From an uncultured Prevotellaceae bacterium (GTDB lineage Bacteria; Bacteroidota; Bacteroidia; Bacteroidales; Bacteroidaceae), in the NCBI GenBank assembly GCA_900315565.1, contig OMZS01000021.1:504-64503 (forward strand): a DNA stretch of 64,000 nucleotides. The letters run 5' to 3'. This document shows, piece after piece, positions 32,580 through 49,141 of this stretch. Position numbers and translations under genes: made by a program. Numbering within the stretch: the stretch's first letter is position 1; each line of letters begins with the position of its first letter. The notes under the pieces are model-generated. The model ran no database searches, was not told where the DNA came from, and worked only from the letters and a program-made list of their open reading frames with translations.

Positions 32580-32607
32580 TACATAACATTTTACTGTATA
32601 GACATTT

Positions 32608-33084: not shown

Positions 33085-33115
33085 TTTGAGAATTGCAAAA
33101 ATAGCAGTACCTTTG
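33085..33115 (+). promoter_or_regulatory. Candidate Bacteroidota promoter for the glycopolymer locus
   Basis: TTTG (33085-33088), 19 nt, then TACCTTTG (33108-33115). This matches the Bacteroides consensus TTTG-N19-21-TAnnTTTG and lies ~220 nt upstream of ATG 33335. Confidence 0.4.
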
Positions 33116-33334
33116 CAAAGCAATGCGCGAGGACAATGTGGAATCTGCGAACACGAAGTGTTCTGATGCGGAGATTTGCAACCTTTCGGCATGCGTTTTA
33201 GAGGCTCAGTATGATGTGCTGCACGGTCGGTTTTGAAAAATCAGACATATCGACCGTGAAGTTTTATTGTGTCTATTAGGAACGTATGCCAAGCCGACAG
33301 ATTCTCCATTTCCGATAACGCATGCGGTGGAAAC

Positions 33335-34615
33335 ATGTTCGGAATAAAGACTTTTATCAAGTCACATTTCAATCGGTATTTCTTCTATCCCCACGTCTGG
33401 CAGAAAATACTCGACAAAAGAGTGGAGACTCTGAGGCAGAAAGACTGCATCACAGTGGCATTCGTCACCATGGATGTGGCGATGTGGAAATATCAGGGGC
33501 TCTACGATTTGCTGAAAAAGGACCGCAGGTTCAACACATACATTGTGCTGTCGCCAACGGTGAAGTTTTGCCGTGAGGAAATGGCCAGGGAGTTGCAGAA
33601 AATGCGCGAATTCTTCGGTCAAAGAGCAATGCCCTATGTTGACTGGGACCTGGAACACGGTGCGCCTCCAACCGACATCCTCAAAACGTTGAACCCCGAT
33701 ATACTGTTTTACACCCAGCCTGGGAAAAAGGTGTTTACAAGCGTACACTCGTTTCGGCATTTCCGCAACAAACTGCTATGCTACTCGCCCTACGGGTTCT
33801 ATATGCATGACAAGCCATCGCTCTACGACCGGAAGTTTCTTAACATGGCATGGAAACTCTATTATTTTACCGACGTGCAGAAAAGTCTGGCCGAAAAATA
33901 TGCCGAGCGTCGGGGTGAGAATGTGATTGTCAGTGGCTACCCGCCTTATGAGCAATACACAAACGGCCCATTTTCTGATGTTTGGAAGATAAAGGACAAA
34001 AGCGTGAAGCGCATTGTTTGGGCACCGCATTTCACTATCAGCACCTCGCTGATGGAAGGAACCAGAGCACGCTCGCACTTCCTGACCATGTGGGAAATGA
34101 TGCCGAAACTTGCCAAGAAATACGAGGGGATGATACAAATAGCCTTCAAGCCGCACCCACGGCTGCTGACTGAATTATATCAGCACCCCGATTGGGGAAA
34201 GGAAAGGGCAGACAACTATTACAGAATGTGGCAGCAGCATATTGACAACGGCCAACTGGAAACGGGCGAGTTTGTGAGTTTGTTTCACGGTTCCGATGCT
34301 CTTATTCACGACTCCAGCTCTTTTCTCATTGACTATGTGTATTTCGACAAGCCAGAGTTCTTTCTGGCCGACGACCTAACATCTTATAAACTAGAGTCTG
34401 ACGAGGTTTCGCTAAAAGTTTACAATAGCGTTTATTACGGACTGAAAGAACAAGAAATATGCCATTTCATCGAGGATGTAGTCATCGGCGGCAACGACAC
34501 AATGAAAGAAACGCGCAACGCTGTGCTTCGGCAACATCTGCTGCCTCCTGGCGGCAAAATTGCCTCGCAAATTATTTATGAGGACTTGAAAAGAGAATTA
34601 TCTCCAAAGTCTTAA
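33335..34615 (+). CDS. CDP-glycerol glycerophosphotransferase family (TagB/TagF-like) protein 1
   Basis: 426 aa from ATG 33335. The motifs IVWAPHFT, FKPHPRL and HDSSSFLIDYVYFDKP parallel the TagF motifs YAPTfR, HP and TDYSS..fDf...kP. Confidence 0.7.
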   Translation: MFGIKTFIKSHFNRYFFYPHVWQKILDKRVETLRQKDCITVAFVTMDVAMWKYQGLYDLLKKDRRFNTYIVLSPTVKFCREEMARELQKMREFFGQRAMPYVDWDLEHGAPPTDILKTLNPDILFYTQPGKKVFTSVHSFRHFRNKLLCYSPYGFYMHDKPSLYDRKFLNMAWKLYYFTDVQKSLAEKYAERRGENVIVSGYPPYEQYTNGPFSDVWKIKDKSVKRIVWAPHFTISTSLMEGTRARSHFLTMWEMMPKLAKKYEGMIQIAFKPHPRLLTELYQHPDWGKERADNYYRMWQQHIDNGQLETGEFVSLFHGSDALIHDSSSFLIDYVYFDKPEFFLADDLTSYKLESDEVSLKVYNSVYYGLKEQEICHFIEDVVIGGNDTMKETRNAVLRQHLLPPGGKIASQIIYEDLKRELSPKS

Positions 34616-34634
34616 CTCCTTTACTCGAATAAAT

Positions 34635-35675
34635 ATGACCGACAGCCGATGGAAGACGAGAGATTCTAACATGGAACTGTTGCGCATCATTGCAATGGTT
34701 TTCATCATGTTGGTGCATGCCAATTTCCGTGCACTGCACTACCCTACTGCCGATGAAATGGCAGTATCGCCCACCGGTGTCTTTGTCCGTTATCTTTGGG
34801 AGAGTCTTTTTGTGTTGGGTGTCAACGCTTTCGTCATGCTGTCGGGGTGGTACGGCATACGTTTCCGACTGAGCCGCCTGTGGGAGCTTTTGTTTCAGGT
34901 GCTGTTTTTTGCGGTCTGCATCATTACAATTGCCTGCATTTATGAGCAACGGTGGCCTGTGATGCGCGACTTAGGCTATTTGCTTCTCAGCGACAACTAC
35001 GATTATTGGTTTGTGAAAGCATATCTGATGCTTTATATCCTGTCGCCCGTGCTGAATGCCTTTGTTGAACGGGCATCGAGAGAGCAGTTGCTACAGGTGT
35101 TGCTGCTGTTCTTCGGCTTCGTGTTTCTCTGGGGCTGGATATTTAAAGGGGCCGTATGGCTGAAGCATGGCCATTCTGGCATTTTCTTCGTAGGACTGTA
35201 TCTGTTGGCCCGTTATCTCAGGCTTTATTGGGTGGACGGGGTGAACATCCGGAAATCTGTCTGTGCAGCCGTTTATCTGTCGATAGCGCTGGTTATAGCC
35301 GCGAGTGCCTACCTGCTGCTCAGAACCAACCATCTGGACTCCGTGCGCAGGCTGTTTTTTTACACCTGCCCGCTAGTTATCGTTCAGGCAGCGGCTTTTC
35401 TGCTTTTCTTCACCAAAGTGAAGCTGAAAAGCAAAATAGTTAATTGGGTAGCCATATCGACGCTTGCCATTTATCTGGTTCATTCGTCACCATTCTGGAG
35501 CAAGGCTTTCTACGACCAACCCATTGCCCACTGGTTTGGCACGCTTACTCCTTTGCATTTTGCCTTTAGGGTGGTGCTGTTGGTGTTTGTGACGTTCTGG
35601 ATCTCGATATTTGCCGACAAGGTGCGCAAAGCCATCTGGCAAAGACTACAGTCAAAGTTCCCTTCTCTGGCATAA
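34635..35675 (+). CDS. Acyltransferase family 3 (O-acyltransferase) membrane protein
   Basis: 346 aa. It has MELLRIIAMVFIMLVHANF and NAFVMLSGWYG, with ~10 hydrophobic segments. Confidence 0.75.
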   Translation: MTDSRWKTRDSNMELLRIIAMVFIMLVHANFRALHYPTADEMAVSPTGVFVRYLWESLFVLGVNAFVMLSGWYGIRFRLSRLWELLFQVLFFAVCIITIACIYEQRWPVMRDLGYLLLSDNYDYWFVKAYLMLYILSPVLNAFVERASREQLLQVLLLFFGFVFLWGWIFKGAVWLKHGHSGIFFVGLYLLARYLRLYWVDGVNIRKSVCAAVYLSIALVIAASAYLLLRTNHLDSVRRLFFYTCPLVIVQAAAFLLFFTKVKLKSKIVNWVAISTLAIYLVHSSPFWSKAFYDQPIAHWFGTLTPLHFAFRVVLLVFVTFWISIFADKVRKAIWQRLQSKFPSLA

Positions 35676-35676
35676 G

Positions 35677-36768
35677 ATGAAAATAGGCATTCTTACGTTT
35701 CACAACGCCATCAACCACGGAGCCGTGCTGCAGACCTACGCCACTCAAGAGCTTTTGCGTAGCATGGGGCACGAGGTGGAAGTGATTGACTACCGCAACC
35801 AAGCCGTTGAAGCCTACTACGACAAATTCAAGTTCCATCTGGGTGTATTACTGCGAAAACGCAAGATTCGCTACCTTGTGTCACCGTTTCTTTTCTGGCT
35901 GCAGCGCCGGGCTTTCAGTAGGTTTAAGAGCAAGCATTTGAGAATATCGCCCGATGGTGCCAGGCAAGCAGGACAGAAAGACCTGATACTAGTGGGCAGC
36001 GACCAGCTTTGGAACTTGCGCATTACAGGCGGATTTGACCCGTGGTACTGGGGCGACAAAGCGACAATAGGATTAGACCCGGAAAAGACAAGGATGGCGA
36101 CCTGGGCCGTATGTATGAACCACACTGAAATGGCCCTTGGCGAGACGGCGCGCATTGGTAGGTATCTGAAGAACTTTTCGGCCCTGAGTGTACGCGAAAA
36201 AGAACTGCTCGACCTGATAGCTCCATTGACAGACAAGCCCGTGGTGCAAACCCTCGACCCCACCCTACTGCTGGAGGCTGACAAATGGAGGGCCTTGTGC
36301 CATAAGGTAAGGCCGAGTCATTATGTGGCCGTTTATGCCATTGAATTTAAAGACAAGCGTCGTGTGGCCAAAGTAGCCGAACGACTGGCCCAGAAAGAAG
36401 GACTGGGCGTTGTGAACCTCCGAGTTTATGCCGACACGGGTTCGCTTTTGGATGCGTTGCATGGCTGCGGCCCCGACGATTTTCTGTCTTATCTGAATGC
36501 TGCCAGTTATGTGGTGACCAGTTCGTTTCATGGTACGGCATTCTCGATGATACTTGGCAAACAGTTTTTCAGTGTGGTTGACCCGGAGAAGGGAAATGTA
36601 AGGGTTGAAAACCTGCTGCGTCAAACGGGTATGGAGAACCGGAAGGTGGACTATGACGAGCGTTTCGAACAGATAGCCCCTATTGATTATTCGCAGTTTA
36701 ATGTTGGCTGCTCGTTGAAAGTCGGCTGTTTGAGAAGCATCGACTTTCTGAAGGAATTGGGAGTTTAA
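35677..36768 (+). CDS. Polysaccharide pyruvyl transferase family protein
   Basis: 363 aa from ATG 35677, which lies 1 nt after the upstream stop. The N-terminus is MKIGILTFHNAINHGAVLQTYA. Confidence 0.75.
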   Translation: MKIGILTFHNAINHGAVLQTYATQELLRSMGHEVEVIDYRNQAVEAYYDKFKFHLGVLLRKRKIRYLVSPFLFWLQRRAFSRFKSKHLRISPDGARQAGQKDLILVGSDQLWNLRITGGFDPWYWGDKATIGLDPEKTRMATWAVCMNHTEMALGETARIGRYLKNFSALSVREKELLDLIAPLTDKPVVQTLDPTLLLEADKWRALCHKVRPSHYVAVYAIEFKDKRRVAKVAERLAQKEGLGVVNLRVYADTGSLLDALHGCGPDDFLSYLNAASYVVTSSFHGTAFSMILGKQFFSVVDPEKGNVRVENLLRQTGMENRKVDYDERFEQIAPIDYSQFNVGCSLKVGCLRSIDFLKELGV

Positions 36769-36771
36769 GAA

Positions 36772-37776
36772 ATGAAGGAATTGGTTTCTGTTCTGGTGCC
36801 GGTATATAATGCCGAAAGGTTTCTTCAACAATGTGTTGACTCGTTGCTTCATCAAACGTATGCGAATGTTGAAATAGTGCTTGTGGATGATGGCAGCACC
36901 GATGAAAGCGGCAAAATTTGCGATGAATATGCGACGAACGACAGTCGTGTGAGAGTTGTTCACAAAGCGAATGCTGGTGTGGCGGAAGCACGTATTACAG
37001 CTTTTGAAAACAGCCGTGGAAGTTACATCGCCTTTGTGGATGCCGACGACTATGTAGCACCCAACTACATTGAAGCCATGCTGAAAGCTGCCACGGAACA
37101 CCGGGCAGATATCATCTCATGCAACCTTCTGAAAGTGAATGGTAACCGCACCATCAAAGAGTCTCACCGCATGGAGGGTTTGTACGACCGCCAGCAAATC
37201 AGAGAAGCGATGCAAACCTGCCTACTCTACGATAAAAAGACACGCACCAACGGAATGACCATCTACCTGTGGAGCAAACTTATTAAACGCGAGTATGTGG
37301 CCAAAGGCCTTGAATATGGGCGTGGTATTTGGTTTGGTGAAGACCAGATAGCCCTGTTCTGCATGCTCTACGAGATAGAACGACTCTACGTGATGCAAGA
37401 CCGCCTTTACTATTATGTGCAACACAAAGCCCAGGTGACAAGGAGATACCACCCATCCATGTGGTTGACAAACATCGAGTGCTGGAAGCGCTACCGCATG
37501 CTGGACCGCAAGCATCTCATTGACGAACAACTGAACCTCCGCATTTGGAAAAGCATCAATCGTATCGTGTTTCAAAGAATGACTATCGTGGTTGACAATT
37601 TCAAAGACTTCAGGACTGATATGCGTGTTTTACGCGAACATGAGGATATGAAACGCTTTTTTAGTCAGGGCATTATCGGATTCGGATTCAAGGAGAACAT
37701 AAAGTATTGGATGCTGAAATATCGCATGTTCTGGCTTTATTATTTAAGTCTTTATCGATGGAAAATACAAAAATAG
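36772..37776 (+). CDS. Glycosyltransferase family 2
   Basis: 334 aa with VLVPVYNAERFLQQCVDSLLHQTY...VLVDDGSTDESG and FVDADD. Confidence 0.85.
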   Translation: MKELVSVLVPVYNAERFLQQCVDSLLHQTYANVEIVLVDDGSTDESGKICDEYATNDSRVRVVHKANAGVAEARITAFENSRGSYIAFVDADDYVAPNYIEAMLKAATEHRADIISCNLLKVNGNRTIKESHRMEGLYDRQQIREAMQTCLLYDKKTRTNGMTIYLWSKLIKREYVAKGLEYGRGIWFGEDQIALFCMLYEIERLYVMQDRLYYYVQHKAQVTRRYHPSMWLTNIECWKRYRMLDRKHLIDEQLNLRIWKSINRIVFQRMTIVVDNFKDFRTDMRVLREHEDMKRFFSQGIIGFGFKENIKYWMLKYRMFWLYYLSLYRWKIQK

Positions 37777-38789
37777 ACTTTGTTGTTACATGGGTTGACT
37801 CGAATGACCCAAATTGGCAAAAGGATTTTCGCTACTATAAAAACAGCAGCGAGGAAATTTCTGACAACTCAGAGGCCCGGTACCGCGACTGGAATCTGTT
37901 TCACTATTGGTTTCGTGCTGTTGAGGAAAATGCCCCTTGGGTTAACAAAGTATTCTTAGTGACCAATGGCACGTTTCCCAAATGGATTAACACGGAACAT
38001 CCTAAACTTGTGTTGGTTAGGCACGAAGACTATATACCCAAAAAACTTCTGCCCACATTCAATTCGCACACCATTGAGCTGTACATGCACAAGATACCTG
38101 GCCTCTCGGAGCACTTTGTCTATTTTAACGATGATTGTTACCTGAACCAGCCTGTAGAACCAGACTACTATTTCCGTGGCGGGCTACCTTGCGACCGTAA
38201 CAAGGAAACTGTGTTTAATGTGGCCCGATACACTCCTGAAGACCGATTCAACACGTATATATCGCTGTTGACTACCGTGAGTGTCATCAATGGGCACTTT
38301 AGCCGCCCCTCTGTCATCAGCCACTCGCTCAGACGATGGTTTGGACCTCATCTGGGAGCTTCAGGACTGCTTATCAGTCTGCTCGTAACAGCTTATCGCT
38401 TTGAGCGATTTGTGGGATTCAAGACCCGCCATACCGAACAGCCTTTTCTGAAGTCAGTGTTTGAAGAAACTTGGGAAAAAGAACCTGACATGCTTGCCAA
38501 AAGCTGCACCCGATTCAGGGAAGACGTGTCGTTGTCGCCTTATTTTTTCCGCTATTGGCAGCTGGCCACCAACCGTTTCTACCCCGTCAGTCTGAAAGGA
38601 ATAGAAAAAATACAGATTCGGAAAGAAAACGTACAACAGATTGCCGATGCCCTGAAGAGCAAAAAAATCAAGTCGCTCTGCCTGAATGACTGTCATTTTT
38701 GCACCAGCGAGGATTTTGTCTGGATCAATAAAATGCTACAAGAGCTACTTGAGAACAAATTTCCCAGGAAGTCGGCATTTGAAAAATAG
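37758..38789 (+). CDS. Stealth-family (CR1-CR4) sugar-phosphate transferase-like protein
   Basis: 343 aa from ATG 37758, overlapping the GT2 stop. Motifs are FVVTWVDSNDPNW (CR1), VFLVTNGTFPKWIN...LVRHEDYIP (CR2) and FVYFNDDCYL. Confidence 0.7.
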   Translation: MENTKIDFVVTWVDSNDPNWQKDFRYYKNSSEEISDNSEARYRDWNLFHYWFRAVEENAPWVNKVFLVTNGTFPKWINTEHPKLVLVRHEDYIPKKLLPTFNSHTIELYMHKIPGLSEHFVYFNDDCYLNQPVEPDYYFRGGLPCDRNKETVFNVARYTPEDRFNTYISLLTTVSVINGHFSRPSVISHSLRRWFGPHLGASGLLISLLVTAYRFERFVGFKTRHTEQPFLKSVFEETWEKEPDMLAKSCTRFREDVSLSPYFFRYWQLATNRFYPVSLKGIEKIQIRKENVQQIADALKSKKIKSLCLNDCHFCTSEDFVWINKMLQELLENKFPRKSAFEK

Positions 38790-38843
38790 AAAAGCCCAAA
38801 TAAATGTTGAACGATTCAAAATTTCAAAATAAGGAATAACGGT

Positions 38844-39671
38844 ATGAGAGAAATGACCATTAAAGATGTCCAGAAAGTTAGTTTGGAACTGCTTCGAGAC
38901 GTTCATGATTTTTGTATCTCTCATAACATTAACTACACCCTATATGGTGGCACCATGCTTGGTGCTGTGCGCCACAAAGGATTCATTCCTTGGGACGACG
39001 ATGTTGACGTGGCCATGCCCAGACCCGACTACGAACGTTTTATTAACAGTTATCAATCAGAAAAAGGTTTTGAGTTGTTTGCCTCGGGAAGTGAAGAGTG
39101 CTATTTGTCGTTCACGCGTGTCTGCGAAATGCAAAAAACGCTGGTCACAGAAGAGCGCCTGCCTTGGTGCAGCCGGCCGACAGGTGTCTGGATTGACGTG
39201 TTCCCCTTAGACGGAGCTCCCGACGACGAGAAGGAAGCGGCAGAACGGGTAAAGGTCATGCGGCAACACTGGAAAAAATGCTGCTATGCCAGAGCTTCAC
39301 ACTCTGCTTTCAGGACAGCACCCACCATGTTCAAAAAAACGAAGCTATTGTATAAGAAGACGTTTCTCAACAATCAGTTTGTAAATATTCATAAGCTTAA
39401 CAAGCAATACGAGGCTGATTGTCAGAAATATAAGTGGGGAACAACAAAGTTTTTCTGCAACTTTGCGTTTATCAGTTTTGGCATGCGTGAGTATATTCCG
39501 ATGGAAGATTATCAATCGACTATAGAAATGGAGTTCGAAGGTACAAACATGCGAGTTTGCAACGGATACGACCATCTGATGCGCCACAAATATGGCGACT
39601 ACATGCAACTGCCACCTGAGGACAAACGAACTCCAAGACACCTTCTTTGCCGTTTCTATTGGAAAGAATAG
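38844..39671 (+). CDS. LicD-family phosphotransferase 1
   Basis: 275 aa with LYGGTMLGAVRHKGFIPWDDDVDVAMPR. The C-terminal motif is KYGDYMQLPPEDKRTP. Confidence 0.85.
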   Translation: MREMTIKDVQKVSLELLRDVHDFCISHNINYTLYGGTMLGAVRHKGFIPWDDDVDVAMPRPDYERFINSYQSEKGFELFASGSEECYLSFTRVCEMQKTLVTEERLPWCSRPTGVWIDVFPLDGAPDDEKEAAERVKVMRQHWKKCCYARASHSAFRTAPTMFKKTKLLYKKTFLNNQFVNIHKLNKQYEADCQKYKWGTTKFFCNFAFISFGMREYIPMEDYQSTIEMEFEGTNMRVCNGYDHLMRHKYGDYMQLPPEDKRTPRHLLCRFYWKE

Positions 39672-39702
39672 GAAAAAATAAACAGAATAACCAATACATA
39701 CT

Positions 39703-41049
39703 ATGAAGAAAGTAATAACATACGGTACTTACGACCTCTTGCACCAAGGACACATCAATCTGCTGCGACGTGCAAAGGCATTGGGCGACTATCTGATTGT
39801 TGGTGTGACCAACGATAATTTCGACCGTGAGCGCGGAAAACTGAATGTGAAGAATAATGTGCTGGAGCGCGTAGAAGCCGTCAAAGCCACCGGTTTGGCC
39901 GATAAAATCATCATTGAGGACTATGTGGGTCAGAAGATTGACGATATACAGAAGTACGATGTCGATATATTTACCGTTGGCTCCGACTGGGTAGGTAAGT
40001 TCGACTACCTGAACGAGTTTTGCGAAGTGGTTTATTTACCTCGTACCGAAGGCATTTCGTCAACTATGCTTCGCGAAGAACAAGACGAGGATGTGAGAAT
40101 CGGTATTGTGGGAGCAGGACGCATTGCCCGTCGTTTTCCGAAGGAAGCCAGTGTGGTTAGTGCCCTGAAGATAACGGGTGTTTTTGATATCGACAAGCCA
40201 AAGGCTGAACGTTTGGCAGAAATCCAACAAATGGAAAAGACGTATGACTCTTTCGAGCAGTTGGTTGATGATGTTGACGCTGTCTATATTGCCACGCCCC
40301 ACTTATGTCATTACGAGCAGACCCGCTACGCATTAAAGCAGAAAAAACATGTGCTTTGCGAAACACCCTTAGTCCTTAATGGCAAAGAGGCGCGAGAGTT
40401 GTTTGAACTGGCCGAACAGAACAATGTGGTGCTGCTCGAAGCCAACAAAACGGCTTATTGTCCTGCGTTCAACCATCTGATGACAATGATTAAGAGCGGA
40501 CTGATTGGTGAGGTGGTGGATATAGAGGCGTCGGAATCGAAAGTGTGGGGCGACCCCACCCTTCGCGAGCTTGACCCCAATCAGGCCGGTGGCTCGTTCT
40601 ACGAACTTGGTTCCTATCCGCTGTTGCCCATTGTAAGACTCATGGGTACTGACGTGCGCAACATGAACATCTATTCACGTATGGACAACGGTGTTGACAT
40701 CTATACAAAAGGCGTTTTGAGGTTTGACAAGTCGGTTTGCTCGTTTAAACTCGGACTGGGTGTGAAGACAGAAGGCAACCTAGTGATTTCAGGAACCAAA
40801 GGCTATGCCTATGTACCTGCCCCATGGTGGAAGACTGACTATTTTGAGCTTCGATATGAAGACCAGAACAAGAACAAGAAATTCTTCTATTCTTGGGATG
40901 GCGAAGGACTTCGCTATGAGATTCAGGAATTCATTTCGTGTATATACAACAAGCGTCTTTCTTCAGCCAAATTGCGTCCCAAAGAGAGCATTTCCATGGC
41001 TGACATCATGGAGCAGTTCGGCAAACGGGTGAACTTTATGGAAATATAG
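39703..41049 (+). CDS. Fusion: TagD-like cytidylyltransferase (N) + Gfo/Idh/MocA-family oxidoreductase (C)
   Basis: 448 aa. The N-terminal part has YGTYDLLHQGHINLLRRAKALGDYLIVGV (HxGH). The Rossmann loop VRIGIVGAGRIARRF begins at about residue 130. Confidence 0.8.
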   Translation: MKKVITYGTYDLLHQGHINLLRRAKALGDYLIVGVTNDNFDRERGKLNVKNNVLERVEAVKATGLADKIIIEDYVGQKIDDIQKYDVDIFTVGSDWVGKFDYLNEFCEVVYLPRTEGISSTMLREEQDEDVRIGIVGAGRIARRFPKEASVVSALKITGVFDIDKPKAERLAEIQQMEKTYDSFEQLVDDVDAVYIATPHLCHYEQTRYALKQKKHVLCETPLVLNGKEARELFELAEQNNVVLLEANKTAYCPAFNHLMTMIKSGLIGEVVDIEASESKVWGDPTLRELDPNQAGGSFYELGSYPLLPIVRLMGTDVRNMNIYSRMDNGVDIYTKGVLRFDKSVCSFKLGLGVKTEGNLVISGTKGYAYVPAPWWKTDYFELRYEDQNKNKKFFYSWDGEGLRYEIQEFISCIYNKRLSSAKLRPKESISMADIMEQFGKRVNFMEI

Positions 41050-41114
41050 TCTCAGACAACAGCGAAAAAAAACACTAATCGTCAGTAAGCCACCAACCTG
41101 GAACTATAATGTAA

Positions 41115-42116
41115 ATGGCAAAACAGCGCAATCCATATTTCGACACCTTGAAGTATGTACTCATTGCACTCGTTGTATTTGGGCACACTTTGGCATCAAG
41201 AAAGCACGCTGGCATCAATCATGAGCTATATTTAACCATGCTTTTGTTTAAGATGCCACTTTTTATTTTCATTTCAGGCTACTTTTCCAGAGTGAAGGAT
41301 CACGATTCTTTTTTCCATGGATTGACCAAGATACTTGAAACTTTTTTGGTATTTCAGGTTATAGGATTAGTCATAGCCGTCATGAAAGGTGAGCCATTAA
41401 CGTTGAGACTTATACTCACACCCCAATGGCCTTATTGGTATTTGCTGTGCCTTGTTTACTGGCGACTGATGCTCTATTTCTTTGACATCAGGAAAAACAA
41501 TTGGAATCCTTTGTTGGTAATGGCTGCTTCTGTTGTGTTGGCCATTGGTGCAGGTTTTATTCCTATACACGAAGTGTTTGAGTTTCAGCGCACGTTTACT
41601 TTCCTACCATTCTTTGTGGCAGGTGTTTATGCTTCCAAATACCAATACACATTCACAGACACGCCTTCTGTGGCAACACGGCTGGCAGCAGCACTATTTT
41701 TATTTGCGGTGTTTGCACTGGCATTTGTCATAGAGATTCCTCAAGACCAATTATTGCTGGGAAAATGGAACTACACGAATTTTGATTTGCCTGTGACCAC
41801 GGCCTGCATGTATAGAGTTATACATTTAGTCATGGCTACAGCAATGGGTATATGTGTCATGACGCTAATACCCCACGGTCAGACGAAGGCAAGCATTCTG
41901 GGACAGGAAACATTGTTTGTCTATGTCTATCATGCCTTTTTCATCCATGGTTTGCGTTCAGCTATCCGTCACTTGCATTTTCCAAACGGCACTGTTAGCA
42001 TGATTATCTATGCTGCCATTATTCTATTGGTTCTTCACTATCTATATAGGGTGAAATTCCTTCAGTTCATGCTGAACCCCATAACAAATCTAAGAAAAAC
42101 CGACAAAAACAAATAA
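41115..42116 (+). CDS. Acyltransferase family 3 membrane protein (second copy)
   Basis: 333 aa with FDTLKYVLIALVVFGHT and MPLFIFISGYF; polytopic. Confidence 0.75.
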   Translation: MAKQRNPYFDTLKYVLIALVVFGHTLASRKHAGINHELYLTMLLFKMPLFIFISGYFSRVKDHDSFFHGLTKILETFLVFQVIGLVIAVMKGEPLTLRLILTPQWPYWYLLCLVYWRLMLYFFDIRKNNWNPLLVMAASVVLAIGAGFIPIHEVFEFQRTFTFLPFFVAGVYASKYQYTFTDTPSVATRLAAALFLFAVFALAFVIEIPQDQLLLGKWNYTNFDLPVTTACMYRVIHLVMATAMGICVMTLIPHGQTKASILGQETLFVYVYHAFFIHGLRSAIRHLHFPNGTVSMIIYAAIILLVLHYLYRVKFLQFMLNPITNLRKTDKNK

Positions 42117-42120
42117 AACT

Positions 42121-42870
42121 ATGATGACAAGAGTATTAGTTGTAGGTGGAGCCAATGGCATTGGTTTGTCGATGGCTCAGATTCTCGCCCAAAGGCCAAC
42201 CACTGAAAAGGTATATATTGTTGACAAGGCTCCATTGGCAGACGAGTATAAAAACGAAAAGACCGAAAGTTATGAGTTTGATTTAACCACGGGAGATTAT
42301 TCCATTTTCGACCATTTCAACGACATAAACGGACTGATTATCACTGCCGGGTTCGGGCGTTTGGCGCTATTTAAGGATGTACCCGAAGAAATGATTGATG
42401 CCTACTTCAACGTCAACACCATCCCTGTTATTAAGATTGTTAAGCACTTTTACGACAAACTGCTGAGTTCTGAGCATTTTTATTGCGGAGTGATGGTGAG
42501 TATCGCCGGTTTCATGTCTTCACCCTTTTTCTCGCTTTATGGTGCCACCAAGGCAGCACTGAAGGTGTTCATTGAGAGTGTCAATGTGGAATTGGAAAAA
42601 GCAGGCTCCAAAAACAGGATTCTTAATGTGTCGCCAGGCTCGATGAAAGGCACCAGTTTTAATCAGGGAAAAACCGATTTGAGCGTTACAGAGCCCATGG
42701 CCAAAGAAATATTGAGCCACATTGAGGCTAAAGACGACTTGTTTATTCCCCAATACGAAGAGATCTTCAAGACAGTGTTGGAACGCTACCATAAGGATTT
42801 TCGTGAAGAAGGCCGTCACAGCTACGACTACAAACTGCAGTCTGGCAGGGTGAATCAACAAAACAAGTAA
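42121..42870 (+). CDS. Short-chain dehydrogenase/reductase (SDR)
   Basis: 249 aa with the glycine loop VLVVGGANGIGLS and the catalytic YGATKAAL (YxxxK). Confidence 0.8.
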   Translation: MMTRVLVVGGANGIGLSMAQILAQRPTTEKVYIVDKAPLADEYKNEKTESYEFDLTTGDYSIFDHFNDINGLIITAGFGRLALFKDVPEEMIDAYFNVNTIPVIKIVKHFYDKLLSSEHFYCGVMVSIAGFMSSPFFSLYGATKAALKVFIESVNVELEKAGSKNRILNVSPGSMKGTSFNQGKTDLSVTEPMAKEILSHIEAKDDLFIPQYEEIFKTVLERYHKDFREEGRHSYDYKLQSGRVNQQNK

Positions 42871-42876
42871 GATTTT

Positions 42877-42940
42877 TCAAGGAGTTCAAGGAGTTGTAAG
42901 AAACTCAAGGAGTTCAAGGAGTAACAAGGAGTAACAAGAC
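42877..42940. repeat. Intergenic word repeats (TCAAGGAGT / AACAAGGAGT)
   Basis: The sequence is tcaaggagttcaaggagttgtaagaaactcaaggagttcaaggagtaacaaggagtaacaagac. It starts 7 nt after the SDR stop codon. Confidence 0.7.
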
Positions 42941-42961
42941 AATAGATTTGTGTAGGGAATA

Positions 42962-43810
42962 ATGGGTGAAACGATTTTCAACATGCGTGCCATGACCCTT
43001 GCAGAGATTCAGGCACAGGAATTGGAGATACTGAAAGATTTCCATGCCTTTTGTGTTGAAAAAGGTCTCACATATTCTCTCTACGGCGGCACTATGCTCG
43101 GAGCCATCCGCCATGGCGGATTCATTCCCTGGGATGACGACCTTGACGTGGCCATGCCCAGACAAGACTACGAGAAGTTTGTTGCCGAATATCCTTCTGA
43201 CAATTCCTATGAATTACATTGTCTTGAACGAGGCAACAGTATGTTGGCTTTTTCGCGAATATGCGAAATGAGCAAAACTTGGGTCAAACAGTCGTTGCCT
43301 TGGTGCAAGCACGAAACAGGTGTTTATATCGACGTGTTTCCGCTGGATGGAGCACCCGACGAGCAAGCAGCAGCGTTGCGTTTTGAGAAGCAATTGCACA
43401 AAAAGTGGATGTGCCTGAAATTGAGCCGGGTGGCTTTACGAGAACTAAAGAACTACCCCTATGCGAAAATGAAAACCAATATTCTGATACGCAAGATGCT
43501 GTTTCGGAATCCCATCACACGCAACATCGACTGGCTGGGAAGACTTGACAGAGCTTGCAAGCAGATCCCTTTTGGGAGCACCAGTCATTTCATCAATGCA
43601 TCGTTCGGAGAATATGGCATGAAAGAGTATCAGCTTTTGGAGGATTTCAAGTACACCGTGCTTAAGTCTTTCGAGGGCGAGATGTTTTGCGTTTGCAATG
43701 GTTACGACCGCCTGATGCGCACTAAATATGGCGACTACATGCAGCTGCCCCCTGAGCACCAAAGAAAGCAGAAACACGGAGGGTCAAAATTTTTCTGGAA
43801 AAACTCATGA
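42962..43810 (+). CDS. LicD-family phosphotransferase 2
   Basis: 282 aa with LYGGTMLGAIRHGGFIPWDDDLDVAMPR and KYGDYMQLPPEHQRKQ. Confidence 0.85.
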   Translation: MGETIFNMRAMTLAEIQAQELEILKDFHAFCVEKGLTYSLYGGTMLGAIRHGGFIPWDDDLDVAMPRQDYEKFVAEYPSDNSYELHCLERGNSMLAFSRICEMSKTWVKQSLPWCKHETGVYIDVFPLDGAPDEQAAALRFEKQLHKKWMCLKLSRVALRELKNYPYAKMKTNILIRKMLFRNPITRNIDWLGRLDRACKQIPFGSTSHFINASFGEYGMKEYQLLEDFKYTVLKSFEGEMFCVCNGYDRLMRTKYGDYMQLPPEHQRKQKHGGSKFFWKNS

Positions 43811-44985
43811 AGTTCAGCGAAATTGTTAAAAGAATATGGCCCCACACACTGGCCAATCTAGCTTATGCTACTGCCCGTCTGTTGGTTGGCATGAAGAAAC
43901 CGCAAGCGAACAAATTTTTTTGCATCAGTTTGTTGGGCGAAAGTTATGGCGACAACATCAAGCCGCTGTCAGACTATCTGGCAAAGCACGAACCAGAGGC
44001 TCAAATAGTGTGGGCATTCAGCAAACATTTCTCAGAGGCACATAAATGTCCGCATAAGGTTGTCAGACTATATACCGTGGCCTACTACTATCAGATGTTG
44101 ACATCCAAATACATTCTTAGCAACGCCCGCCTTAACCAGCGGATGATTCACAAACGTAAAGGACAGATATACTTGCAGACATGGCACGGGACGGCCTTGA
44201 AGCGTCTGGGCACAGACATCAAACGTAAGCGTAGCCAATGGGAACAGCTTTACAATCCTGGAGTGTTTGAGTTTGACGTCAGCAACACCGACGTGATGAT
44301 TTCCGGGTCGCGCTTTATGACCAATCTTTACCGTGACAAATTTCTGTTTAAAGGAAAGATAGCCGAAACAGGAACGCCCAGAAACGACATTTTTTTTAGC
44401 AGCCAGCCACAATTGAGACAAAAGATTTGCGATACCTACGGCTTGGAAGAAGGGAAACTGCTGATTCTCTATGCTCCCACATTCCGTGCTGACAGAAAAT
44501 ATACGTATTATAGCATCGACCTCAAACAGGTGAAAGACACCTGGGAGCGCAAGACCGGCCGTGCATGCGATTTTCTGGTGCGGCTTCACCCAAAACTCAA
44601 ACAAGACAACAAAGCCTTCGAAAAGGCATTTGGCAAGGGTGTTACCGATGTCACCAGCTACCCCGACATGCAGGAACTGCTCTATGTGTGCGACCTCTTT
44701 ATTACCGACTACTCGGCCACGATGTTCGATTTCATCTACACACGCAGGCCCCTATTGATTTTTGCCCCCGACCACGAGAGCTACAACCGAGGCTTCTATT
44801 TCCAGCTAAGCGAACTTCCCTTCATGGTCATAACCGACAATCAGGACATAGAGAAAACCCTCACCCATTTCAACCCGCAGACTTATGGCCAGCGTGTTGA
44901 CGCATTCTTAGAGCGCATAGGTTCTGTAGAAAGAGGCAATGCCACCGAGCAGGTAGTGAATTTGCTGAGAAGAACGAACAATTAA
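43807..44985 (+). CDS. CDP-glycerol glycerophosphotransferase family (TagF-like) protein 2
   Basis: 392 aa with LILYAPTFRAD, LVRLHPKL and ITDYSATMFDFIYTRRP. It has an ATGA overlap with the upstream gene. Confidence 0.85.
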   Translation: MKFSEIVKRIWPHTLANLAYATARLLVGMKKPQANKFFCISLLGESYGDNIKPLSDYLAKHEPEAQIVWAFSKHFSEAHKCPHKVVRLYTVAYYYQMLTSKYILSNARLNQRMIHKRKGQIYLQTWHGTALKRLGTDIKRKRSQWEQLYNPGVFEFDVSNTDVMISGSRFMTNLYRDKFLFKGKIAETGTPRNDIFFSSQPQLRQKICDTYGLEEGKLLILYAPTFRADRKYTYYSIDLKQVKDTWERKTGRACDFLVRLHPKLKQDNKAFEKAFGKGVTDVTSYPDMQELLYVCDLFITDYSATMFDFIYTRRPLLIFAPDHESYNRGFYFQLSELPFMVITDNQDIEKTLTHFNPQTYGQRVDAFLERIGSVERGNATEQVVNLLRRTNN

Positions 44986-44986
44986 T

Positions 44987-46288
44987 ATGCTGAACAGACT
45001 TCTAAACCGACCCTGGTTCAACAAATTGGTTGAAGCCCAATTCTTTCTGGCATGGATGGCGTGTGCCGTCTTGCCAAAGAAATTTGTCAAGGTGCTTTTC
45101 GTTGGCGAAATCGCCCTGTTCTTCCTGCTGTTCCTGGGTCACTTCAAAACCATTTATAAATACATGACCATCTCCAAGCCAGGACGAACGGTGTATTGGC
45201 TTTGGATGGTGTTTTTTGCCATAGCAGCCATTTATCTTTGGCTGTCGTACAAGGATATTCCCTATTTCTGGCGCATCCCCTTACTGCTTTACGATCAGGA
45301 GTACATTTACCGCCAGTACATGATTATTCCTGAGCTGATTGTGCCTTTAGGGCTCGGATTTATTTTAGCCCGCACGGGCACCATTTATAAATCCAACTCC
45401 CTTTTCCTGTTCCTTTTCCTGACGGGTGTCACCGGACTCTATTATTCGGGCTTTGCCAACAAGATTATGCTTTCGGGGCTGGTGGTGGCTTTGTCGAGCC
45501 TGCTGGCGCTGAAAACGCGCAATTACATCTATCTGATACTCATTCCGCTGGTCATTTCCAACCACTCGGCTTACAACATTGCTGCAGCGGCCATACTGGG
45601 ACTAATCGTCTTGAGAAGACCCATGAAAGCCTTCCTCGCCCACCACACCACTTGGCGAATCATCTTTTTGCTCATTGTAGCAGCCTCACTTATGTATTAT
45701 TACTCTGACGAGCTCTACGAGAAAATCACTACTGACGAAAACTCGCTTTGGCGACTCCGTGTGTGGGAGAACGAAATCAACTCACTTTCTGACACCTATT
45801 ATACGGGTGTCGGGTTTGGCACCACTTACGTTACCTACGACATCTACACCATCGTGAACAACCCCAACATGTATTTCGACAAAGACCGCACGCTCTACGG
45901 CCGACTGTTCATGGTGGCCAACCACAACTCGTTCCTCAACATGTTCTACCGCATGGGCCTTTGGGGAGGCATTGTCTTTCTGCTGCTCAACATCAGCATC
46001 TGCTCCTACTCCATCCATTGCTACCGAAAGGCCAAAGAATTCAGGAAATACATTTGGTGGGCATTCTCTAACTTTGTTTATCAAATCATTATTATTCTGC
46101 TCAATCCAGGACTCGAAATGATGCAGTTTGCCATCAATTACATGGGGGCCCTTTCCTTGCTTATTGGTGTCAATTACAGTCATGTGCTCGTTATGAAAGG
46201 TAAGCACAGTTACCTGCATCGCCTGTATGTGGAAGCTAAATGGAGAAAATTACAACTGAAGACCTTCATAGGCACCTCCTTGCGCTAG
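44987..46288 (+). CDS. O-antigen polymerase/ligase-like (Wzy-type) membrane protein
   Basis: 433 aa with more than 10 hydrophobic segments. There are no enzymatic motifs I can name, so the call rests on topology and context. Confidence 0.5.
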   Translation: MLNRLLNRPWFNKLVEAQFFLAWMACAVLPKKFVKVLFVGEIALFFLLFLGHFKTIYKYMTISKPGRTVYWLWMVFFAIAAIYLWLSYKDIPYFWRIPLLLYDQEYIYRQYMIIPELIVPLGLGFILARTGTIYKSNSLFLFLFLTGVTGLYYSGFANKIMLSGLVVALSSLLALKTRNYIYLILIPLVISNHSAYNIAAAAILGLIVLRRPMKAFLAHHTTWRIIFLLIVAASLMYYYSDELYEKITTDENSLWRLRVWENEINSLSDTYYTGVGFGTTYVTYDIYTIVNNPNMYFDKDRTLYGRLFMVANHNSFLNMFYRMGLWGGIVFLLLNISICSYSIHCYRKAKEFRKYIWWAFSNFVYQIIIILLNPGLEMMQFAINYMGALSLLIGVNYSHVLVMKGKHSYLHRLYVEAKWRKLQLKTFIGTSLR

Positions 46289-47055
46289 GAACCACATTCC
46301 ACCAACTCTGTCAGAAGCACAACATACCCTATTTTATGCTGGGTGGCACTATGCTGGGAGCCGTACGCCACAAAGGGTTTATTCCTTGGGACGACGACAT
46401 GGATTTTGGCATCCCACGCGACCATTACCCACGTTTTCTGCAAATAGCTCAAGCCGAGCTGAAAGGTCCTCTGCGCCTGCTCGACTACCACAACTCCGAA
46501 TATGCGGTTTTAGGCTTTGCCAAGCTCACCGACACACGCACACTGGTGAATGAGTTTTTTCGCCCAAGGTGCAACGAACAAATAGGAGTCAACATCGACA
46601 TTTTCCCCCTCGACTATGCCAATGGCCGAAAAGATTTCTTTTCGTTTAATGCCCATATCCGCAGACTGTTCAAATGGCAGAAGCTCATCTGCTTTGAGGC
46701 AAAGAACCGCCCTTGGCCCAAGCGTCTGTTGGGAAACGTTGCCAGAACTCTGCTGCTCGTTGACCGACGTTTGCCCTCAAAAATCCAGCAATCCATCGAG
46801 AAATCACTCGTAACCCGTCGTGCCGACGACTCCCGTTGGAGCATGTTTGCCAACTATCTGGGAGGTTGGGGACTCAAAGAACTGGTAGCCCGCGAAGTGT
46901 TTGGCACCCCTACACTATATCATTTTGAGAACACGCAGTTTTACGGGGCCCAGCATTCCGACGCTTACCTCAAAACGCTTTATGGCGACTACCATCAACT
47001 GCCACCGGTAGAAAAACGAACTCCCCACTCCTACGAGGCATACAGACTGGAGTAA
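46240..47055 (+). CDS. LicD-family phosphotransferase 3
   Basis: 271 aa with MLGGTMLGAVRHKGFIPWDDDMDFGIPR and LYGDYHQLPPVEKRTP. It overlaps the upstream gene by 49 nt. Confidence 0.8.
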   Translation: MEKITTEDLHRHLLALGTTFHQLCQKHNIPYFMLGGTMLGAVRHKGFIPWDDDMDFGIPRDHYPRFLQIAQAELKGPLRLLDYHNSEYAVLGFAKLTDTRTLVNEFFRPRCNEQIGVNIDIFPLDYANGRKDFFSFNAHIRRLFKWQKLICFEAKNRPWPKRLLGNVARTLLLVDRRLPSKIQQSIEKSLVTRRADDSRWSMFANYLGGWGLKELVAREVFGTPTLYHFENTQFYGAQHSDAYLKTLYGDYHQLPPVEKRTPHSYEAYRLE

Positions 47056-47130
47056 ACGGCTGACGCATCTTCCATCCCTACAAGCCGGGGGTGGGGTCTG
47101 TATTATTCCTAATCTATTTCATTTTTTACT

Positions 47131-48209
47131 ATGAAAAAAAAGGTCCTCTTTATTCTCCACATGCCGCCACCTGTTCACGGGGCAGCCATGATAGGTCAAT
47201 ATATTCACGACAGCCGACAAGTAAACACAACCTTCGACTGCCGTTATATCAATCTGTCGTTGGCCAACAGCCTGACCGATATTGGAAAACCTAGCATGAA
47301 GAAAATGCTCAACTACCTCAGCCAGCTCCGAAAAATAAAGAAAGAAGCGCGCCAGTTCAACCCCGACTTGGTTTATGTCACCCCAAGCGCCGAAGGCAAT
47401 GCTTTCTACAAAGATTTCTTCGTGGTGCAGATGCTCAAGCGCCTGGGCTGCAAAGTGGTGGTGCACTATCACAACAAGGGCGTAAAGAACAGCCAAGGAA
47501 AGTTTTTCGACAACCTGCTCTACCGCCGCTTTTTCAAAAACCTGAAAGTCATTCTGCTGGCCGAAGTGCTCTACGACGATATTAAAAAATATGTTCAACC
47601 CGAGGACGTGATGTACTGTCCCAATGGAATACCCGAAATGCAATGATGAACCAACGACCCCTCAACATACTGTTTCTCAGCAACATGATAGAAGAGAAAG
47701 GTGTGTGGACACTCCTTTCTGCCTGTAGTCTGTTGCGCGACCGTGGCTGTCAGTTCCAATGCCATTTTGTGGGCCGTTGGAGCGACGTCAGCGAAGAATT
47801 GTTTCTGTCACGAATAGCCGACCTGCAATTGGGCAACTATGTGCAGGCTCATGGCGCCGTCTATGGAGACAAGCGCTCTGCTTATTTCAGCCGTGCCGAT
47901 GTGTTTGTGCTGCCCACGTTCTACCATAACGAGTGTTTCCCGTTGGTACTGCTCGAAGCCATGCAACATGGGCTGGCCTGCATCTCCACCAACGAAGGAG
48001 CCATTTCGCAGATTATCGACGACGAAGATACTGGCTTCATCATAGAGAGCCGCAATCCGTCGATGCTTGCCGACAAGCTGCAACTGCTCATACAGAAGCC
48101 CGAGCGCTGCCGGAAGATGGGACTCCGCGGCAACCTGAAGTTCAGAGAAAACTACACCATCGAGCATTTCGAACAACGGTTCATCGGCATTCTCAATTCC
48201 CTCCTTTGA
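47131..48209 (+). pseudogene. GT4-type glycosyltransferase split into two ORFs by a frameshift
   Basis: ORF 47131-47646 (N-half, ...YCPNGIPEMQ*) and ORF 47643-48209 (C-half, ...ILFLSNMIEEKGV..., EGFPLV-like CFPLVLLEAM) are in different frames. Together they total ~360 aa, a normal GT4 size. An A8 run lies at 47134-47141. The split could also be a sequencing error. Confidence 0.6.
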
Positions 48210-48230
48210 ACTTTGAACATTGAGCATTGA

Positions 48231-48384
48231 TCTTTGAACATTGAGTGTTAGGAAAGAAATTAGAATAATTAATATAATTATCCAAGAATTATTTTTATAA
48301 TTTATGGCGAAATTATTCTAATTATTCTAATTTCTTTCCTAAATATATCATTTCTCATTTTTCATTTATCATTTAGCGAAGCGC
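48231..48384 (+). repeat. Palindromic intergenic element, copy 1
   Basis: A perfect 23-bp inverted repeat pairs TAGGAAAGAAATTAGAATAATTA (48249-48271) with TAATTATTCTAATTTCTTTCCTA (48319-48341). It is flanked by TTGAACA words and by the TCATTTC...TCATTTAGCGAAGCG tail. It is near-identical to 51806-52014. Confidence 0.8.
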
Positions 48385-48388
48385 CCCC

Positions 48389-49141
48389 TTGTTTCTCTCC
48401 ACACTCAACATCCTCCCTTCGCGCGATGCGCTGGCAACCATTCCCGAAGGAAAGACACTTATCAACACCCTCAATGCCCACTCGTTCAACACAGCCCAGA
48501 ACGATCCCCTGTTTGCCGAGGCATTGCGTAAGGGCGACTATCTTTTGCCCGACGGAGGCAGCATCGTGATGGCATGCCGTTGGCTCAAGGCACAGTCGCA
48601 ACCCAAAGAGCGAGTGGCCGGATGGGATTTGTTTGTCTATGAGATGCAGCGTGTCAACAATGCTTTTGCCCAGCGTCAGCAGCAGGGTGTGTGCTTGTTT
48701 CTGGGCAGTTCTGAGCACGTTCTTAGCCTCATTCGGCAGCGGGCAGCCCACGACTATCCCCATCTGCGCATAGTCACCTATTCCCCACCCTACAAGGCTG
48801 AGTTCTCCGACGAGGACAGTCAGGCAATGGTCAGCTTCATCAACACCACCAATCCCGACTTGCTCTGGATTGGTATGACGGCACCCAAGCAAGAGAAATG
48901 GACTTACCAGAACTGGCACCAGTTGAACATTCATTGTCACGTAGGAACCATTGGAGCCGTTTTCGATTTCTATGCAGGAACCGTCAAGCGGGCCCCGCTC
49001 TTCTTTCAGCGCCACTCCTTGGAGTGGCTCCACCGCCTCCTGAGCAACCCCCGGCGCATGTGGCGACGCTACATTCTGGGCAATCCCCTTTTCATTTGGA
49101 ACATCCTCAAAGAAATATTCCACCCATCCTCCAACTCTTAA
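48389..49141 (+). CDS. WecG/TagA/CpsF-family glycosyltransferase
   Basis: 250 aa with an assumed TTG start. Motifs are INTLNAHSFN, LLPDGGSIV and LLWIGMTAPKQEKW. Confidence 0.8.
   Translation: MFLSTLNILPSRDALATIPEGKTLINTLNAHSFNTAQNDPLFAEALRKGDYLLPDGGSIVMACRWLKAQSQPKERVAGWDLFVYEMQRVNNAFAQRQQQGVCLFLGSSEHVLSLIRQRAAHDYPHLRIVTYSPPYKAEFSDEDSQAMVSFINTTNPDLLWIGMTAPKQEKWTYQNWHQLNIHCHVGTIGAVFDFYAGTVKRAPLFFQRHSLEWLHRLLSNPRRMWRRYILGNPLFIWNILKEIFHPSSNS

Follow-up and report, generated by a model that had tools for sequence, protein, structure and literature searches.

Pneumococcal polyol-phosphate capsules are Wzy-dependent, and pneumococcal teichoic acid is made with LicD1/2/3, TarI/TarJ, the TarP polymerase, and the TacF flippase. 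In Bacillus and Staphylococcus, wall teichoic acid (WTA) is produced by the TagO-TagA-TagB-TagD-TagF-TagGH pathway. The surface polysaccharides of gut and rumen Bacteroidales are structurally known in only a few cases. Here we describe a polysaccharide locus encoded at positions 33335-49141 of a 64,000-nt stretch of DNA (the window; contig OMZS01000021.1, positions 504 to 64,503) from an uncultured Prevotellaceae bacterium. The locus comprises 16 genes, including six for phosphotransferase-type enzymes: two TagF-like proteins (TagF1 and TagF2), three LicD proteins, and one Stealth protein. On balance, we lean toward reading it as a functional and horizontally mobile operon by which a rumen Prevotella makes a Wzy-dependent heteropolysaccharide with several phosphodiester-linked groups in each repeat unit. 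The polymer would be a capsule, an exopolysaccharide, or an O-antigen; a poly(glycerol phosphate) chain is less likely.

Based on what is generally known of these systems, the closest functional analogues appear to be the pneumococcal polyol-phosphate capsules and pneumococcal teichoic acid. As in those, the repeat unit is predicted to be carried on undecaprenyl diphosphate and to be modified by several LicD and TagF-like phosphotransferases that make single additions from CDP-alcohol donors. A cytidylyltransferase and a reductase are encoded within the locus, as are a putative Wzy-type polymerase and options for O-acetylation and pyruvylation. However, the host is a Gram-negative Prevotella, and the cytidylyltransferase is a TagD-type domain (PF01467) fused to a Gfo/Idh/MocA domain rather than an IspD-type TarI working with TarJ. 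In further contrast to the pneumococcal systems, the locus encodes a Stealth enzyme, has no linked flippase or initiating transferase, and, like the rest of the window, lacks the choline genes licA, licB, and licC. With the WTA pathway the locus shares homologs of TagA (WecG family), TagD, and the catalytic domain of TagF/TarF with its histidine motifs. Unlike that pathway, it lacks TagO, a TagB equivalog, TagGH, and an LCP ligase, and its TagF2 is a single-domain protein. It further has Wzy, three LicD proteins, Stealth, a pyruvyl transferase, and additional glycosyltransferases. No locus protein reached an NCBIfam equivalog cutoff, and the scores all fell far short.

Group 2 capsules, such as those of Actinobacillus pleuropneumoniae (Cps3D/Cps7D) and Neisseria meningitidis A, X, and H, resemble this system in their Gram-negative hosts and in being phosphate-containing surface polymers made from CDP-glycerol or UDP-hexose donors (PMC8262930). 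Their enzymes are multidomain polymerases encoded in ABC-transporter (KpsMT) loci and their polymers have a poly-Kdo linker (PMC8262930, PMC11666461), whereas here the enzymes are minimal and single-domain, Kps genes are lacking, and Wzy is present. A cytidylyltransferase and an NAD(P)-dependent oxidoreductase that together supply a capsule CDP-polyol are also seen in CDP-alditol pathways (TarI/TarJ for CDP-ribitol, Streptococcus pneumoniae Mnp1/Mnp2, and Campylobacter jejuni HS5.18/HS5.17 for CDP-6-D-glucitol; PMC10918830). The C. jejuni HS5.18 pathway relies on an IspD-family (PF01128) cytidylyltransferase and on an extended short-chain dehydrogenase/reductase (SDR) that acts on a CDP-ketose (PMC10918830). 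Here, in contrast, a TagD-type domain is fused to a Gfo domain of the ETP type and is accompanied by a classical SDR, in whose place some other species have an aminotransferase. Membership in the C. jejuni HS:5 CDP-alditol pathway was thus rejected, as the enzyme families differ. Like the capsular polysaccharide loci of Bacteroides (PSA-PSH, CPS1-8; PMC12632263), this is a variable, low-GC, horizontally exchanged Bacteroidales operon with many glycosyltransferases, Wzy, and acetyl and pyruvyl transferases. Unlike them, it has no UpxY/UpxZ and no linked Wzx or initiating transferase, its density of phosphotransferases is far higher, and no long inverted-repeat pair was reported at its promoter candidate.

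All parts of the locus belong to known families, their logic is known, and the family names are already in public annotation. Relatives that are at least 90% identical are named Prevotella sp. metagenome-assembled genome (MAG) by NCBI, and their proteins are called "CDP-glycerol glycerophosphotransferase family," "Stealth CR1 domain-containing," and "O-antigen ligase family." An earlier note on this DNA had considered such a polymer to be essentially uncharacterized in Prevotella-like bacteria. In the literature searched, we indeed saw neither such a polymer nor such a locus described: it contained nothing relevant on teichoic-acid-like polymers, LicD/TagF, or CDP-glycerol in Prevotella or Bacteroides, and no structural or genetic study of the surface polysaccharide of a rumen Prevotella. 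The parts themselves are not rare in Bacteroidota, and the gut or oral setting envisaged in that note gives way to the rumen, rather than the human gut or mouth. What makes the locus notable is its density of six phosphotransferases, a maintained split glycosyltransferase of family GT4, and the absence of linked export genes.

Whether the locus is functional was judged by comparison across strains, a step that the earlier note had suggested. A sister strain from another sample (L092) has the locus at the same chromosomal site, with 88% DNA identity. All 14 genes shared with it are intact and under purifying selection, with dN/dS values of 0.02-0.16 at dS 0.3-1.0 (0.02 for the cytidylyltransferase-Gfo fusion, 0.06 for Stealth, and 0.12 for TagF1). 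By this measure the locus is functional. Three features might instead suggest a decaying or silent locus: the GT4 enzyme is encoded by two open reading frames (ORFs) where the homolog in another Prevotella MAG (L010) is one 365-aa gene, a 177-nt palindromic insertion lies 5' of the WecG gene, and neither Wzx nor a phosphoglycosyl transferase is present. The intact state and low dN/dS of the 14 shared genes largely refute this explanation, which we regard as very improbable.

The GT4 genes themselves argue in the same direction. The cut lies in the inter-domain linker of the GT-B fold, and the two genes overlap by an ATGA stop/start, an arrangement typical of translational coupling. The junction is identical in the sister strain, and both halves have low dN/dS (0.06 for the N-terminal and 0.04 for the C-terminal half). 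An assembly error or pseudogene is ruled out by this shared junction and the low dN/dS, and the pair is best read as a maintained two-subunit enzyme rather than as decay. Two ENA metagenome contigs (L001 and L002, one of them from dataset STEW19-1) have stretches that are 100% identical to window positions 31001-51000 and therefore provide no independent check on the split.

Evidence for mobility comes from a pair of sequences (L010/L011) representing the other Prevotella MAG, in which 13 syntenic genes with 52-92% amino-acid identity (59% for the pyruvyl transferase and 80% for the Wzy_C protein) occur at an unrelated chromosomal site. The locus can thus be described as a mobile cassette. The GC content is 44-49% in the locus vs. 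50-55% in its flanks. The L010/L011 version lacks the first two genes, TagF1 and the first Acyl_transf_3. The second Acyl_transf_3 (window 41052-42070) is present in L010 and absent from the sister strain, which also lacks the 177-nt palindromic insert. O-acylation is therefore likely a strain-variable accessory step.

Family calls were made by Pfam profile searches of the window ORFs (the cutoff for Glyphos_transf being 22.1 bits). They upheld every family named in the earlier note, with a weak call for the first TagF-like protein. The sequence motifs quoted there are present, although both of the "TagF" motifs belong to the second TagF-like gene only. Catalytic motifs are conserved in the TagD-like domain, TagF2, the LicD proteins, and the SDR.

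TagF2 matches Glyphos_transf at 260 bits over profile positions 13-365 of 367. It aligns to residues 359-715 of Staphylococcus epidermidis TagF (E 5e-44), i.e., to the catalytic region only, and matches the capsule polymerase Cps3D (E 6e-32). The TagF histidine motifs are kept (LQTWHGT vs. IQTWHGT and VRLHP vs. LRMHY). We take their histidines to be the catalytic His444 (QxWHG) and His584 (HP/HY), a numbering that is assumed here and is in line with the PDB title "TagF H444N." The best NCBIfam match is TarF (164 bits vs. a cutoff of 550), an enzyme that adds just one or two units. TagF has 729 aa in its PDB entry, and capsule polymerases carry a fused glycosyltransferase domain (PMC8262930); the long multidomain architecture of a TagF-type processive polymerase is not seen in TagF2, which has a single domain of 392 aa. 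TagF2 is thus a TagB/TarF-sized single-domain protein with predicted transferase activity.

These results bear on whether the locus could instead encode a true pathway of the teichoic acid or group 2 capsule type. In such a pathway TagA would build a linkage unit, TagF1 and TagF2 would act as primase and polymerase (or Stealth as the polymerase), a long poly(polyol or sugar phosphate) would be made in the cytoplasm and exported by an ABC transporter, and the Wzy_C protein would be a WaaL-type ligase to lipid A-core. The set of TagA, two Glyphos_transf proteins, and TagD does resemble that of WTA synthesis, both catalytic histidine motifs are kept in TagF2, the Wzy_C protein is called "O-antigen ligase family" at NCBI, the locus has no Wzx, and the opposite strand has an ABC-2 system 1.5 kb downstream. 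However, TagF2 is without the ~350-aa N-terminal region of TagF and without the extra glycosyltransferase domain of the capsule polymerases (PMC8262930). The adjoining ABC system is a TolC/HlyD efflux operon that is absent beside the L010 copy, three glycosyltransferases, three LicD proteins, and a pyruvyl transferase indicate a complex repeat unit, and Wzy_C co-varies with the locus. Overall, we consider a pathway of this kind unlikely. The single-domain nature of TagF2, the locus-specific Wzy, and the lack of a linked ABC exporter are the reasons for preferring a Wzy-dependent heteropolysaccharide. The earlier note's "teichoic-acid-style" poly(glycerol phosphate) therefore appears overstated, given TagF2 of 392 aa, a Wzy_C protein, and no linked exporter of the TagGH/KpsMT type. 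Its broader expectation of a phosphodiester-rich polymer, probably pyruvylated and O-acylated, is a fair one in view of the six phosphotransferase-type enzymes and the CDP-alcohol donor module.

The assignment of TagF1 draws on several lines of evidence. The Glyphos_transf match is weak (39.6 bits vs. 22.1) and covers profile positions 157-302 of 367, in the C-terminal half. The subfamily has more than 1000 homologs, most of them with PF04464. The AlphaFold2 model (pLDDT 92) has a GT-B fold, for which Foldseek returned UDP-GlcNAc 2-epimerases (TM 0.56-0.64) at or above TagF/TarL (~0.5), with Bcs3 similar. As the scores of the 2-epimerases, Bcs3, TarL, and TagF are alike and the fold alone is not decisive, reassignment by structure was rejected. 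A profile search of the PDB gave only a marginal match to TarL (E 0.097), and hhalign of a profile against a single sequence was uninformative. Profile-profile alignment to TagF2-like proteins gave a probability of 95%, which supports TagF1 as a probable divergent homolog of these.

The three LicD matches (PF04991) are full length (profile positions 1-227 of 227; 155, 132, and 136 bits), and the proteins have the acidic motifs PWDDDVDV, PWDDDLDV, and PWDDDMDF. The first, with its DDDVD motif, weakly matches FKRP. In cross-matches on L010, the second is ~46-47% identical to a LicD1-type gene, and the third ~30-33% identical to LicD1- and LicD2-type genes. The Stealth protein scores above the cutoffs for CR1, CR2, and CR4, and CR3 was not reported at E <= 0.01. 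Matches in the PDB to CpsY of Mycobacterium tuberculosis (4.7e-37) and to GNPTAB (6e-28) place it securely, by homology, in the Stealth family. All of the locus phosphotransferases are without hydrophobic segments, and phosphotransfer thus probably takes place on a lipid-linked intermediate at the cytoplasmic face.

The widespread cytidylyltransferase-Gfo module is the most interesting lead. Residues 1-126 of the fusion protein match glycerol-3-phosphate cytidylyltransferases in the PDB (2b7l, E 9e-37; 1coz, 3e-35), and the motifs HQGH and RTEGISST (HxGH, RTxGISxT) are present. The score against TIGR01518 is 118.8 bits, below the cutoff of 165.4. The Gfo/Idh/MocA domain (89 bits) has the fold and the NAD-binding motif. 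The EKP motif of its four closest relatives in the PDB is ETP here (residues 219-222), with Thr in place of Lys, and at residues 296-306 GGSFYELGSY replaces the usual D...H/Y motif, with Glu as the acidic residue and the Tyr kept. Neither T221 nor the other atypical active-site residues vary among 24 homologs, which points to an active site that is non-canonical yet conserved. From these alignments, the fused domain is a member of the Gfo/Idh/MocA superfamily with a predicted non-canonical active site. The SDR encoded downstream has the GGxxGIG and YxxxK motifs.

To assess how common the fusion is, we surveyed one genome per species. At least 586 species genomes, most of them from Bacteroidales, were found to encode it, and identity is 62-84% among the 80 loci that were kept. 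Carriers include Prevotellaceae, Bacteroidaceae, Muribaculaceae, Rikenellaceae, Paludibacteraceae, and Odoribacter, as well as Fibrobacter and Akkermansia MAGs; Segatella bryantii DSM 11371, Xylanibacter muris, and Prevotella dentalis DSM 3688 are cultured carriers. The gene right after the fusion encodes an SDR in 58 of 79 species loci. An aminotransferase of class V or class I/II takes this place in 12 of 79 (among others in L046, L053, L054, L061, L063, L070, and L074), which suggests a variant that makes an amino-polyol donor. Among 148 genes that flank the fusion, LicD (28) and Glyphos_transf (18) are the commonest families. The SDR shares 88% identity with its counterpart in L010 and 72% with that in P. 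dentalis. By these comparisons, the donor module is highly conserved (62-92% identity) and appears horizontally spread. In S. bryantii DSM 11371 (L028, 10001-12863) it consists of the fusion, an SDR, and a membrane protein of the CDP-alcohol phosphatidyltransferase family (CDP-OH_P_transf), and lies in a polysaccharide locus with Wzx, GHMP-kinase, and SIS-domain genes. This strain offers a tractable cultured model for the module.

The donor module occurs in very different types of loci. This would fit another explanation, in which the enzymes decorate an existing glycan, such as the lipopolysaccharide (LPS) core, an O-antigen, or the general protein O-glycan of Bacteroidota, with short phosphodiester-linked groups. 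Neither an initiating transferase nor a flippase is encoded in the locus, and LicD enzymes elsewhere are known to decorate LPS and teichoic acids. On the other side, the locus has its own Wzy_C and a WecG/TagA enzyme whose acceptor would be a lipid-linked primer, in keeping with de novo synthesis of a repeat unit, and 16 genes are many for a decoration module. We therefore regard a purely decorating role as improbable and retain de novo synthesis of a Wzy-dependent polymer as the preferred reading.

The fusion of the TagD-like domain to an oxidoreductase, with an SDR or aminotransferase as its partner, raises the possibility that the donor is not plain CDP-glycerol. An order of activation, oxidation, reduction or transamination, and transfer is suggested by this gene neighborhood, and the product may differ accordingly. 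We tentatively propose, as a possibility that we hold with limited confidence, that the fusion and its SDR or aminotransferase form an uncharacterized pathway that yields a new CDP-activated donor, starting from CDP-glycerol or from a related phospho-alcohol. In hundreds of Bacteroidales species, as well as in genomes of Fibrobacter and Akkermansia, LicD, TagF-like, or CDP-alcohol phosphatidyltransferase-family enzymes would install it on surface glycans. Examples of what the donor may be are the enantiomeric CDP-sn-1-glycerol, formed via a 2-keto intermediate, or a CDP-amino-polyol such as CDP-serinol. The literature searched held no biochemical study of the fusion, CDP-serinol, or CDP-dihydroxyacetone in Bacteroides or Prevotella. 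The locus described here has one cytidylyltransferase vs. five CDP-alcohol-type transferases. If the proposal is true, with these five and Stealth it would make one of the most phosphodiester-dense glycans known in Gram-negatives. Naming the product of the module would annotate a common surface decoration of gut and rumen bacteria in one step.

We infer the following order of steps for the locus as a whole. An unlinked WecA-type enzyme would prime undecaprenyl phosphate to give Und-PP-GlcNAc, to which the WecG/TagA enzyme would add ManNAc or ManNAcA. The latter enzyme has a superfamily match (TIGR00696, 127 bits vs. a cutoff of 69); the equivalog scores are lower than required (TarA, 109 vs. 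350 bits; WecG, 89.5 vs. 323) and do not assign a donor sugar. Further sugars may be added by the GT2 enzyme and the two-piece GT4, and hexose-1-phosphate by the Stealth enzyme. CDP-glycerol would be formed by the TagD-like domain, and the Gfo-like domain and SDR may turn it into a second CDP-alcohol. Polyol-phosphate could then be moved from these donors by the single-domain TagF-like enzyme(s) and the three LicD enzymes. The pyruvyl transferase may form a ketal, possibly on ManNAc. The unit would be exported by an unlinked flippase, polymerized by Wzy, and O-acylated by the two Acyl_transf_3 proteins. The only polytopic membrane proteins of the locus are Wzy_C, which has hydrophobic segments, and the Acyl_transf_3 proteins, the first of which has ~8 such segments. 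The best reading of Wzy_C is as the putative repeat-unit polymerase.

In favor of this route, the Wzy_C gene moves with the locus to a different chromosomal site in L010/L011, and in other species the donor module occurs in loci with Polysacc_synt (Wzx) and Bac_transf genes. Several observations weigh against it. The Pfam family Wzy_C also takes in WaaL ligases, in keeping with the NCBI name of the protein. No Wzx or phosphoglycosyl transferase was found in the window or beside the L010 copy, so the export route is hypothetical. The histidine of the WHG motif aligns, with low confidence, to a residue that is only partly conserved in TagF1. The canonical EKP lysine is absent from the Gfo domain, so redox activity is not assured. 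Finally, Stealth and TagF-like enzymes are the polymerases of group 2 capsules (PMC8262930), which makes a phosphodiester backbone possible. If the prediction holds, the product would be a strongly anionic, phosphodiester-rich, pyruvylated, and O-acylated surface polymer, with consequences for cation binding, the adsorption of phages, and how host lectins and antibodies recognize the organism.

Genes for export and initiation were sought by Pfam searches of likely-gene ORFs of at least 150 aa over the 64 kb, with overlapping opposite-strand and shadow ORFs set aside. No Wzx/MOP flippase, Wza/Wzc, UpxY/UpxZ, or phosphoglycosyl transferase was present among these ORFs, in agreement with the earlier note. 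A flippase or initiating enzyme is found in neither the window nor the L010 version of the locus, and no polysaccharide ABC exporter (TagGH/KpsMT) or KpsC/S/E/D is linked in the window or in the L010 setting. The ABC operon downstream of the locus (50638-58079, minus strand) encodes TolC, HlyD, a double ATPase, and two ABC-2 permeases, and resembles the YbhGFSR efflux system. It is adjoined by an AraC-family regulator on the plus strand. This TolC/HlyD/AraC context and the absence of the system beside L010 ruled it out as the polymer exporter, and it is probably unrelated to the locus.

The coordinates of the locus features are listed in Table 1. The 16 co-oriented, close-set genes reported in the earlier note are borne out by the ORF coordinates: all lie on the plus strand with spacings of -49 to +179 nt, and the limits are exact, with 33335 as the ATG of the first gene and 49141 as the stop of the WecG/TagA gene. 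The TTG start of the latter was chosen by comparison with the sister strain.

Table 1. Features of the polysaccharide locus and its candidate promoter, in window coordinates
Feature	Coordinates	Strand	Evidence or remark
Candidate Bacteroidota-type promoter, TTTG-N19-TAccTTTG	33085..33115	+	220 nt before first ATG
TagF1, putative divergent TagF-like GT-B protein, 426 aa	33335..34615	+	Glyphos_transf 39.6 bits
Acyl_transf_3 membrane O-acyltransferase no. 1	34635..35675	+	Pfam 77 bits
Polysaccharide pyruvyl transferase	35677..36768	+	PS_pyruv_trans 106 bits
GT2 glycosyltransferase	36772..37776	+	Glycos_transf_2 145 bits
Stealth-family hexose-1-phosphate transferase, 343 aa, minimal core	37758..38789	+	CR2 144, CR1 35, CR4 31 bits
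LicD no. 1	38844..39671	+	Pfam LicD 155 bits
TagD-like cytidylyltransferase (residues 1-126) fused to Gfo/Idh/MocA domain (130-448)	39703..41049	+	CTP_transf_like, GFO_IDH_MocA
Acyl_transf_3 membrane O-acyltransferase no. 2	41115..42116	+	Pfam 78 bits
Classical SDR, usual partner of the fusion	42121..42870	+	adh_short
LicD no. 2	42962..43810	+	Pfam LicD 132 bits
TagF2, TagF-like CDP-glycerol glycerophosphotransferase (predicted), single domain, 392 aa	43807..44985	+	Glyphos_transf 260 bits
Wzy_C-family polytopic membrane protein	44987..46288	+	Pfam Wzy_C 41 bits
LicD no. 3	46240..47055	+	Pfam LicD 136 bits
GT4 N-terminal Rossmann half, 171 aa	47131..47646	+	Glyco_transf_4
GT4 C-terminal half, 188 aa	47643..48209	+	Glycos_transf_1 102 bits
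AT-rich palindromic insertion, 177 nt, between GT4 C-terminal and WecG genes	48206..48382	none	
WecG/TagA-family glycosyltransferase, TTG start (ATG in L092)	48389..49141	+	Glyco_tran_WecG 172 bits

The candidate promoter matches what we take to be the Bacteroidota-type consensus. The window has seven matches to this consensus vs. 1.8 expected, none of 100 shuffles reached seven, and from the ORF and tRNA coordinates at least three of the other matches lie just 5' of genes. The match at 33085-33115 is thus a candidate for the promoter of the locus. The 750 nt upstream of the locus contain short local repeats, and no long inverted-repeat pair was reported flanking the promoter consensus. There was no sign of regulation by UpxY/UpxZ or by an invertible promoter, as neither a NusG-like UpxY nor UpxZ was present among the ORFs searched and no such long repeat pair was reported. 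In this 750-nt gap, at 32794-32897, a ~25-nt unit (CCCAxxGGCTGGGACTTTTTTCCCA) is repeated three times in direct orientation, with inverted repeats nested inside, and the unit occurs nowhere else in the window.

The palindromic element occurs as two AT-rich copies (48206-48382 and 51822-51914), each with a 32-nt inverted repeat, TTAGGAAAGAAATTAGAATAATTA... The second copy lies between the two ABC-2 permease genes. The element looks like a small mobile repeat of the miniature inverted-repeat transposable element (MITE) or repetitive extragenic palindromic (REP) type, and it could act as a terminator or attenuator.

At the left end of the window, positions 8-5682 are a probable phage-defense island. 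One gene, possibly continuing past the left edge, encodes a CBASS-type E1-E2 (ThiF) and JAB fusion. The others encode an AbiLi-like AAA_21 protein, a protein of the MBL fold (PDC-M48B/LmuA-like), and a pair of the AbiLi/AbiLii (RloB) type.

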